A stretch of 64,000 bases of DNA from Podarcis vaucheri (lineage: Eukaryota): assembly GCA_965113315.1 (NCBI GenBank), contig OZ220363.1; one strand, given 5' to 3'. Within the stretch, counting starts at the first letter, position 1. Every line of letters begins with the position of its first letter. A model generated the notes under the pieces. It searched no databases. It was not told where the DNA came from and worked only from the letters and a program-made list of their open reading frames with translations. Shown one piece after another: positions 33,101-36,100 of this stretch. A program made the position numbers and the translations under genes.

Positions 33101-36100
33101 CTGTGTAGTTCATTTACTTAAGGAAAATTCAAATGAGAATGTACCAGGAAGCATCTCCATCCCTTACTAATGCTATGCTCATCTTCCATTGATTATGATA
33201 ATTTAACAGAAGGACAAAGAAATAGGATGGCAATTAAACTGCCACACTTTATAGAGATCTGCATAACTTCTCAGGAAAGGGAAGGAGGACTCATTTAACA
33301 AAACAAAAACAAACTAGGGATATAGCATGAAAATAAAGAAAATATACTGTCTGCATTTGTGGAGAGGAGGAGAAAATTGTATTTGAATATCGTTTTTGTC
33401 ACTGTTTTCAAGTTTTGTGTTCATTGTTTTCAAATCTTTTATATCTTTGACAATCACACATTCAAAACTAATATCTTTTAAGTGCCTGAAGTGCCCAAGA
33501 AAATTGTCCCAGAAGAAAAAGTACCAAAGAAACCAGAACCTCCCCCTGCTAAAGGTATTTGTCAATTATGAAATAATCATAGTGAAAATATTTGGGTACA
33601 ATGCTGCTTATATAGAATCAGTAGTAAAACTCCCATGGGTTTTAAATGGAGCAGGATTCCAGCTTTTGCCTTGCTCCCATGCCTTCAGTTCCTTCATTTA
33701 TTACTTCCCATTGAAAGGTGGCATTTATTAGGCACAATCCGGGTGAAGCTAAGCACTTTTAAGGCTACAGTTCTATGCACACATCTGAGAGAAAAGTTCA
33801 TTGTACACCACGGGACTTCCTTCTGACTAAACATGAGCAGGAAGTTTATGCATGTCCCATTAATTTCAGTGGAAGGATTAAGCACAAAGTGCTTAACTTT
33901 AACTGGATTATGCCCAAAGTAACATGTAATCCAAATGCATATCAGATACATTTTTATAGTCTTTTTGATCATATTGAGTAAGGAAAGCCAGAGGTTTATG
34001 AGCTGCCAGTGACATTTAGGTTGCATTGAGCTTGGTGGGTCACAAAGAAGTTGGTGGTACACCTAGGCAATGCATGTCAATAATAAATCAAAATACAAAA
34101 TATCAACAGGCCAAAGAAGACATGTAAACTTCCAGTTGTGTTGTGTCATCTTCCTATAAGTTGGCAAAATTCTTGTCAAAGGCATAAACTTATTCATTAT
34201 CCATTCAAGTCATTGGATGTTAATGTGAACATCCTATTAATATGTACTTGGATTTTACCATCATTTTGAGTATATCATTGGGTTTTGAGAATTAAGGAGA
34301 ACACCTTCGGAATATATGATGGCCCAGAAGAAAATATTTATCAAATATTTATCAGTTCATATATAGTCATCAGTAATAGAGTAGAGTAAATATAACCAAG
34401 GCTAAAACCACTCCAATCTTTTTACAGATTTACTGTTTATGAGGAGTGGGGGTGTAATGCTATCTTGTCACAGTGGGATTGTAAATGCATTTTCTTTGTT
34501 TGTGTTTGATACCCTTGTTTTCCATCTGCATTGTCTGAATTAGTGATTGTTTTAATGAAAGAGAAAAGCGAGAGGCTGAGATAGATCTTCAATGTTATGT
34601 AGTAGATAATGTTGTATATCGTCATCTTTTGTGTCTCACGGTTTCTTGATCTCATAATCTTGCACATTGCATTTCAAATTAATAATAGTAAAACAAACAA
34701 ATATCTTTAAAGTGCCAGAGGTGCCCAAGAAACCTGTGCCTGAAGAGAAGGTCCCTACTCTCAAAAAGAAAGAACCACCAACACCTAAAGGTATATGTTA
34801 TATCTGATCAAATCTTGAAGTGAAAAACATCATTTTCTTATACTCTTGATCATTGATCATCTTTTGGATATCCTTATGAGTCTATGTCATGCATTCTTTT
34901 GAGTAGCTTTCTGTGGCTAGCATCTCCATCCTTATAGTTCTACTGGTGGTACAAGTGGAGTTGTACTTCATGGTAGTTTGTTGTTACAAGATTCTGGGGA
35001 CAAAAGCATGCATGCCCCCTCATCTTACATCTTGAGCTTTGACATTTTCCCATCTTTTACATTTCATTGTGCTTTCAAAATTCAATAGTAAGCATTAACT
35101 AATATCTTTAAAGTGCCAGAAGTGCCCAAGAAGGCTGTCATCGAAGAGAAAGAACCAACTCCCGTGCTTAAAAAGCCTGTACTTAAGGAACCAGAGCCTC
35201 CTCCTGTTAAAGGTACATTTCAGCATTAATGCAGTTATAAAGAATGTGGTTTGATCCAGGTGTTTAAAGCATATGTCTGGGAGATTCTTGTTTTGTCTGT
35301 GCTCCGTTGCTTAAAATTTCTTTTGTAAACAATACTGTTGGTTCAGTCCAGTGTGCGAGAGAGAAAGTGCTTAGCTGTGCTGAACTTCATCACGACTGCT
35401 TTCTCTGTGTCCTAGTATGCAAACACAATTGCTGATTTTGTTATAATTGTGCATTATGTTTCAATCTTCTTCATATTAGCTACATATCTCTTGCCCCTTC
35501 TTAAAAGTAAAACTAATCTCTTTTAAGCACCCAAAGTACTTCGGAAAACTGTGCCAGTTTAAAAAGTAACTCTTGTTTTACCTAAAGAACCAGAACGCTT
35601 TGCTGTGTCTGAAGAACCAGAGACCATTAGTGTTTATGAAGAAGAAAAAGTCACTGTTGAGTATGAAGAAGAAGTCGTCACTGTTGTTGCCGAAGAACGT
35701 GAACCTGCTATTGTGCCTAAGAAACCCAAGCCTACCATTGTCCCTAAGAAACCAGAAGCTGCAGCCGTGCCGAAACCACCAAAAGCTGTACTTAAGAAAC
35801 CAGAACGCCCACCTGCTAAAGAGACCTTGGAATATGAAGAAGAACGAGAGGTGCAAACGATTGTTGGGTACAGAGAGCGAACACATGTTTCTGTCCACCA
35901 GGACATAGAGGCTATAGTTGCACTTGAAGAACCTGAGAGTGCTTCAGCTTTTGAGATCACAGAGCCTGAGCAATACTTTATTGAGGGATCAGAGGAGATT
36001 ATTTCACTTGAAGGACCCGAAGCTGTCCCAGAAGAACCAGAAGCCGTTGCTGCTCCGGAAGAAATGAAACCTGCTATTGTGCCAAAAAAGCCGAAGCCTA

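Follow-up and report, generated by a model that had tools for sequence, protein, structure and literature searches.

Our preferred reading, which we hold to be probable, is that an in-frame TAA codon close to the start of a giant PEVK exon of titin is a real stop, common to three related species, and that the start of the exon now lies downstream of this codon, with the AG ending at position 35587 as the most likely site in the window (the whole stretch of DNA that was analysed, 64,000 nucleotides). From the sequence it seems quite likely that an acceptor of some kind downstream of the stop is used, and we lean towards AG 35587 itself as that acceptor. If this reading holds, a titin stop is tolerated by the start of the exon moving past it.

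Judged from its exon content, the 64-kb window is part of the titin (TTN) gene on the + strand, for short phase-1 PPAK exons form an array there, and after them come I-set Ig exons similar to those of titin. The PPAK exon downstream of the giant exon (Table 1) reaches 24.3 bits against its Pfam profile (cut-off 21), the Ig exons match I-set (E 2e-13, Pfam) and, among solved chains, titin 5jdd_A (E 2.7e-30) with MyBP-C comparable (2.9e-31), and further tandem Ig exons are present in the 200 kb 5′ of the window. The query stretch is single-copy in its own genome (1.61 Gb in 285 contigs searched), the only matches being to itself and to two internal repeats of the exon. By DNA profile scan no stops were found in the exon frame of the PPAK-type exons, the weak remnant at 27407 excepted; a single small PPAK exon is omitted from this and the other profile counts, and from the acceptor, divergence and codon counts given below.

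Several other features of the locus deserve mention. The stretch 27390-27490 holds a decayed PPAK exon with a family-type acceptor at 27406, the reading VSGLSKKPVLDKC* and, 71 nt on, a GT that looks strong, a distance that three does not divide; the profile E-value is only 0.026, and the remnant, 27407-27477, is likely a frameshifted dead PPAK exon. Another giant exon (giant exon 1, 25377-27152; 1,776 nt, phase 1-1, open throughout, donor AAG/GTAGAC, without a Pfam match) is of a size that is absent from the portions of mammalian PEVK descriptions available to us. There are also PEVK exons of medium size that are rich in Glu and Tyr and carry short internal repeats (12343-12666 and 19729-20067) and several intronic copies of a short interspersed repeat (1690-2050, 4330-4420 and 16590-17270), which we take to be a lizard-type SINE. 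Two long open frames with Ig motifs, one of 2,801 codons (in L017, from ~2800) and one of 1,311 codons (in L018, from ~7500), lie 67 and 52 kb upstream of the window, respectively, presumably where Novex-3-like and N2B-like exons belong.

Starting from its old family-type acceptor, the exon is a 1,455-nt PEVK exon with the phase-1 reading APKVLRKTVPV*KVTLVLPKEPE. The first-pass annotation had described this sequence accurately, including the acceptor at 35527, the TAA and the roughly 1.4 kb left open past it: from 35563 onwards the frame has no stop before or across the canonical donor AAG/GTATAT at 36982/36983 (stop to stop, 35563-37038). It had also named two AGs, ending at 35566 and 35587, as bypasses. 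Both are in phase 1 as it said, and both do bypass the stop, but they are not the sole ones, as the exon has 77 in-phase AGs, others of which would start it at 35594, 35615, 35621 or 35642. The copies of the internal repeat differ mostly at third codon positions. A micro-exon followed by a short intron around the stop was considered and rejected, as GT 35536 leaves introns of 31 or 52 nt and breaks the phase.

Table 1. Window coordinates of the exon, its stop, the competing acceptors and the neighbouring exons.
Feature	Position	Strand	Details
Upstream PPAK-type exon	35114..35212	+	99 nt, phase 1-1, donor AAG/GTACAT
Old family-type 3′ splice site	35498..35527	+	AG 35526-35527 intact; sole branch-like motif found at -12
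Likely abandoned 5′ exon piece	35528..35587	+	20 codons, PPAK-derived
In-frame TAA	35560..35562	+	11 codons past acceptor 35527; kept in four samples, three organisms
In-phase AG (start 35567)	35565..35566	+	Weak; no branch-like motif; preceding AG 7 nt off
Predicted working 3′ splice site	35566..35587	+	GTAAC (A 35569, -19), tract 35570-35583, AG 35586-35587
Predicted productive giant PEVK exon	35588..36982	+	1,395 nt, 465 codons, phase 1-1, starts EPERFAVS
Predicted product, peptide following upstream exon			EPERFAVSEEPETIS
Three internal repeats	35704..36982	+	Starts 35704, 36070, 36511; 122, 147, 157 aa
Donor	36983..36988	+	GTATAT after AAG
Downstream PPAK exon	37382..37465	+	84 nt, Pfam PF02818

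Could the stop be an artifact? DNA contigs from four of 24 runs were compared over 35430-37060, representing four samples of three organisms from three studies: X2 is organism A and possibly the source sample, hence not independent; X3 is organism A from another sample and study (without cover over ~36750-37060); X5 is organism C; and X13 is organism I. T35560 is retained in the contigs of all four runs. In X2, X3 and X13 every difference of the contigs covering the site is listed away from 35560 (3/3, 10/10 and 16/16, respectively). For the X5 contig five of nine differences are listed, all six T>C changes are listed elsewhere, T>G and T>A are absent, and the single unlisted A>G could at most turn the stop into TGA or TAG. 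The organisms are up to ~2% apart here, X13 having 31 differences in 1,631 bases. Because the stop stands in a second organism-A sample and in organisms C and I, it is not the base-call error that the first-pass annotation had allowed for, and it is likely fixed. Since contigs lose variants that are rare, a sense allele at low frequency is conceivable, but with T35560 in the contigs of X3, X5 and X13 and the locus single-copy in its own genome, an error of base-calling or assembly is hardly credible, and neither is a private allele. As a separate observation, the stretch 35491-35735, which comprises the old acceptor together with the exon's initial 208 nt, has no substitution in X2, X3 and X13, and the next 511 nt have 16.

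By parsimony, the differences among stop-carrying lineages postdate the stop. At least 40 substitutions are listed, 39 of them exonic (one intronic difference is omitted and seven further differences are unlisted), and the 39 consist of 24 synonymous changes, 15 replacements and no stop. The neutral expectation by change type is 12.7 ± 2.8 synonymous changes, and 24 were reached in none of 20,000 simulations; the CpG-matched expectation is 14.8 (P = 0.0005, omega 0.38), and for non-CpG changes alone 12 of 24 are synonymous versus 5.9 expected (P = 0.004). If all seven unlisted differences are taken as replacements, the worst case, P is 0.008 and omega 0.51, and overall omega behind the stop is about 0.3-0.5. 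The constraint is found early in the exon, with six of seven changes synonymous in 35589-36013 (P = 0.007), a signal that falls to P = 0.08 if all four unlisted X5 differences are replacements in that interval. After removal of the 18 changes equal to another repeat copy's base, 11 of 21 are synonymous versus 8.2 expected (P = 0.12), a filter that is biased against third positions, which it removes preferentially; for changes confined to X13 the excess is borderline (P = 0.055). The sole listed exonic indel, in X13 at 35616, is 3 nt long. We rejected gene conversion as the cause of the synonymous excess: for 17 of the 18 paralog-matching changes, diagnostic sites that stayed unconverted leave room for a tract of ≤29 nt, which makes conversion unlikely. 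We likewise rejected the open frame alone as proof of a living exon; it proves little because a neutral exon would acquire no new stop among 39 changes with a probability of 0.57. From the substitution pattern, translation of the exon body has most likely continued after the stop appeared, and translation after the origin of the stop implies an in-frame acceptor behind it.

What can be said of the exon before it acquired the stop? A single protein, P0001, was matched at lengths of 260-828 (37% identity over 73% of the query), and in the 50%-cluster protein library it was the best of five, the four others being weak (E 4e-6 to 3e-4). P0001, whose cluster has two members, is by its alignment probably a distant ortholog of the exon: it aligns at both exon ends (MPVKKVPVAAPHEPERF versus VPV*KVTLVLPKEPERF), continues beyond the donor and has Lys at the stop position. 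No orthologs were found at protein lengths of 829-2365 and 30-259, full-length titins being outside the searched lengths, none of 341 pattern matches for the exon in JGI metagenome contigs was confirmed, and the protein-length, 50%-cluster and JGI metagenome searches together yielded no lineage with only the stop or only the acceptor change. Internal repeats number three in the window exon and apparently two in P0001, so that repeat number varies between lineages. The intron just after the donor (36983-37005) looks conserved, reading through as GIWHNLF versus GSWHNVF in P0001; this stretch may be a splicing element, and it contains TCTT, which we take to be an RBM20 motif.

At the site of the stop, 32 PPAK exons have E in 20 cases, K in 11 and A in one. 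The first-pass annotation's premise that this codon is usually E (GAA) is therefore only partly correct, and with Lys in P0001 and K in 11 of the 32 exons G>T is one option of two, and we do not accept it as the established origin. A few codons on, P0001 has P-V-A-A, near the family's P-V-A-V, where the window has T-L-V-L, and it is the T-L-V-L codons that make up the branch-like motif and the tract of AG 35587. The first 12 codons of the exon carry eight first- or second-position departures from the family consensus (the maximum in 34 other exons is seven), and the 5′ piece as a whole still matches the PPAK DNA profile (E 7e-6). The contrast expected of a shifted acceptor is present, with coding constraint in the part behind the stop and a likely abandoned 5′ piece that is the most diverged of 35 exons. 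Both the diverged piece and the tract would fit a release from coding and a reshaping for splicing.

Which acceptor could serve the shortened exon? Candidate sites, named here by the exon start they would give, were scored with three home-made position-weight models built from the acceptors of one gene: PPAK-only (44 sites), Ig-only (38) and pooled (82). As a class, PPAK acceptors in the window (535-43534) are unusual in that 42 of 44 end in AAG after A/T-rich, pyrimidine-poor tracts, with nTAAY frequent at -12/-13 and found at -40 to -17 in only 15 of 44, and they rank under the Ig-exon acceptors in the Ig-trained model. The PPAK-only model gave 35588 5.6 bits and the old site 13.9, within the range of the true sites of the family (-5.3 to 24.4). 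With the Ig-only model, in which the median of true PPAK acceptors is -6.3, the old site has -9.7 and 35588 -2.8, which places it eighth of the 77 in-phase AGs, behind seven that include 35594 and 35621. The pooled model gave the old site 7.0 and 35588 3.9, second of the 77 and at the true-site median. Thus the old acceptor beats 35588 in two of the three models and is outscored by it in the Ig-only model, and the strength of 35588 is that of a median true site when the classes are pooled and weak in the single-class models. The other PPAK exons contain 208 internal AGs that are in phase; none of these reaches the score of 35588 in the pooled model (the best has 3.6), and five do so in the Ig-only model.

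The first-pass annotation had noted that the change to T brings AG 35566 closer to the TTTAAAG consensus, and the T does raise its score (-5.6 with G), but this AG is poor in all three models (-1.3, -11.0 and -4.6 bits in the order above), and we rejected it as the main site. Its description of a branch-like motif and a pyrimidine tract at AG 35587 was borne out by GTAAC and a T-rich tract. This AG has a 19-nt AG-free zone and is the first after the GTAAC; its tract has nine T in 18 nt, compared with at most seven in the 27 of 44 PPAK exons that have a matching motif, while its pyrimidine content of 13 in 18 is unexceptional (three exons have 14). The acceptors giving 35528 and 35588 are 60 nt apart, a multiple of three, with a common donor at 36982, and an exon start of E-P after the AG is also found in two other family exons. 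Deeper in the exon there are modest-scoring in-phase AGs at 36014, 36449 and 36902, the last of which leaves an 81-nt exon of PPAK size.

Under our preferred reading, the exon start would have moved 60 nt downstream, leaving the stop in the end of the intron for productive messages; with a start at 35588, 20 residues would be lost and 465 of 485 codons still translated. The codon changes from P-V-A-V/A to T-L-V-L would have built the branch-like motif and T-rich tract of AG 35587. Nonsense-mediated decay removes messages in which many junctions follow a premature stop at a long distance, and any leak via the old acceptor, in which the stop is so placed, would be cleared in this way. That the old acceptor survives is to be expected because the divergence is so short. 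The bypass by acceptor shift that the first-pass annotation had proposed is supported indirectly, and the evidence points to 35587 and not to 35566. To speak of a rescue assumes that the stop came first, and it may simply be that this piece had become part of the intron before the stop appeared in it. The case could also serve to tell whether a stop drives a splice shift or comes after it, as related lizard genomes could put the stop and the four tract-building changes in order.

The same mechanism could operate with another landing site, or several: exon starts at 35594, 35615, 35621 or 35642, or others up to ~35696. We consider this unlikely, if reasonable. The site at 35594 shares the GTAAC (at -25) and has -1.5 bits in the Ig-only model, 35642 has 7.7 in the PPAK-only model, and selection is unable to place the start more finely because the first listed substitution behind the stop lies at 35736. 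Even so, no bypass site other than 35588 has a good rank with each of the models, and its AG is the first past the branch-like motif; the pooled model drops 35594 to -6.3 and 35642 to 0.1. A different proposition, also among the four options of the first-pass annotation, which on the sequence we regard as quite unlikely, is a regulated switch between poison and productive forms in which both acceptors are used, the choice of 35528 ending titin in the PEVK region and leading to decay or to a short, I-band-only titin, and the choice of the downstream site leading to a long spring. The old acceptor is indeed intact and strong by family standards, and the counts of zero substitutions in 35528-35735 versus 16 in 35736-36246 in X2, X3 and X13 (P ~0.004, post hoc) hint at nucleotide-level constraint at the 5′ end of the exon. 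Nevertheless, two bases kept over ~2% divergence are what chance would give, the absence of changes in the 60-nt piece 35528-35587 alone is not significant (P = 0.25), the four unlisted X5 differences could fall in 35528-35735, and the intron just 5′ has one substitution and one 3-nt insertion. If such a switch were real, the dose of titin as well as its stiffness would depend on which acceptor is chosen, a 465-residue spring being added or not, and the lizard lineage would have a switch built into titin itself, by means of a newly built acceptor 60 bases on.

Two further readings would do without a working acceptor shift. The exon might be recently dead, or almost never included, its frame open only for want of time. 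PPAK exons do die in this cluster, as the frameshifted remnant at 27407-27477 attests, the number of PEVK-C exons varies widely among mammals according to the part of PMC6469411 available to us, and a neutral exon would, as noted, often have acquired no new stop by now. We nonetheless find a dead exon, an option raised by the first-pass annotation, very unlikely and disfavoured by the substitutions behind the stop, which are not those of neutral evolution: the synonymous excess (24 of 39) arose among lineages that all carry the stop, gene conversion explains it poorly, and the donor is intact. Alternatively, the old acceptor might still be used and the stop be read through or recoded, for example by editing of both adenosines, which would account for the intact old acceptor as well as the constraint behind the stop. 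Yet no other exon of the family has diverged as far as this one in the 12 codons that lead up to the stop, and UAA followed by A is a poor context for read-through; we think this exceedingly improbable.

Truncating variants of titin are a main concern in human muscle genetics, and here a natural, apparently fixed nonsense codon is found in this gene. Annotating these species from the family-type acceptor would lead to the mistaken conclusion that titin is truncated, or that the exon is dead. The surprise of the case is limited in that the process that likely explains it, a 3′ splice-site shift with the stop in the abandoned piece, is already known. In the open-access literature, subscription papers and supplements being outside that scope, we found no report of this exon or its stop, and the parts of PMC11033294, PMC12241362 and PMC12961865 that were available to us are silent on both.

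How does this case compare with known systems? One way in which alternative 3′ exons come about is through a competing acceptor inside the exon, at a distance divisible by three (Koren, Lev-Maor & Ast 2007, PMC1876488), and a splice-site shift through a competing acceptor within the ancestral exon has been described (PMC3538075; both papers as far as available to us). The titin exon resembles these, with its competing in-exon acceptor 60 nt away and the ancestral site still present. However, in the tested cases reported in the available part of PMC1876488 the ancestral site is major and productive and the extension coding, whereas in titin the ancestral form carries the stop and the predicted derived site would alone be productive. 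There is also a likeness to the intronization model, the first step of which is the removal of a stop-bearing piece of a length divisible by three (Catania and Lynch, 2008, PMC2586383, as far as available to us): a short coding piece with a stop is removable by a latent site, the frame is kept and nonsense-mediated decay avoided, and the piece that titin would lose is 60 nt long and holds the TAA. Unlike in that model, which requires the stop first, an existing titin intron would lengthen by 60 nt and no new intron would form.

Human TTN offers a closer comparison. Its PEVK exons, which are often skipped, have alternative in-frame acceptors, as predicted here; alternative sites number 19, of which 16 preserve the frame (Savarese et al., 2018, PMC5874998, as far as available to us), but the human shifts (Table 2 of that paper) are mostly of 3-9 nt with few larger, compared with 60 nt in the present exon, and the available part of that paper describes for human TTN neither a fixed stop between sites nor a 1.4-kb PEVK exon. 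As in the PEVK-C array (PF02818; PMC6469411, as far as available to us), phase-1 PPAK exons precede the distal Igs, and both ends of the giant exon are PPAK-derived; unlike the exons of that array, it measures 1,455 nt, holds three repeats of 122-157 aa and has no Pfam match above the cut-off. The present case differs from these systems in that the nonsense form is the ancestral one and that the exon affected is 1.4 kb long.
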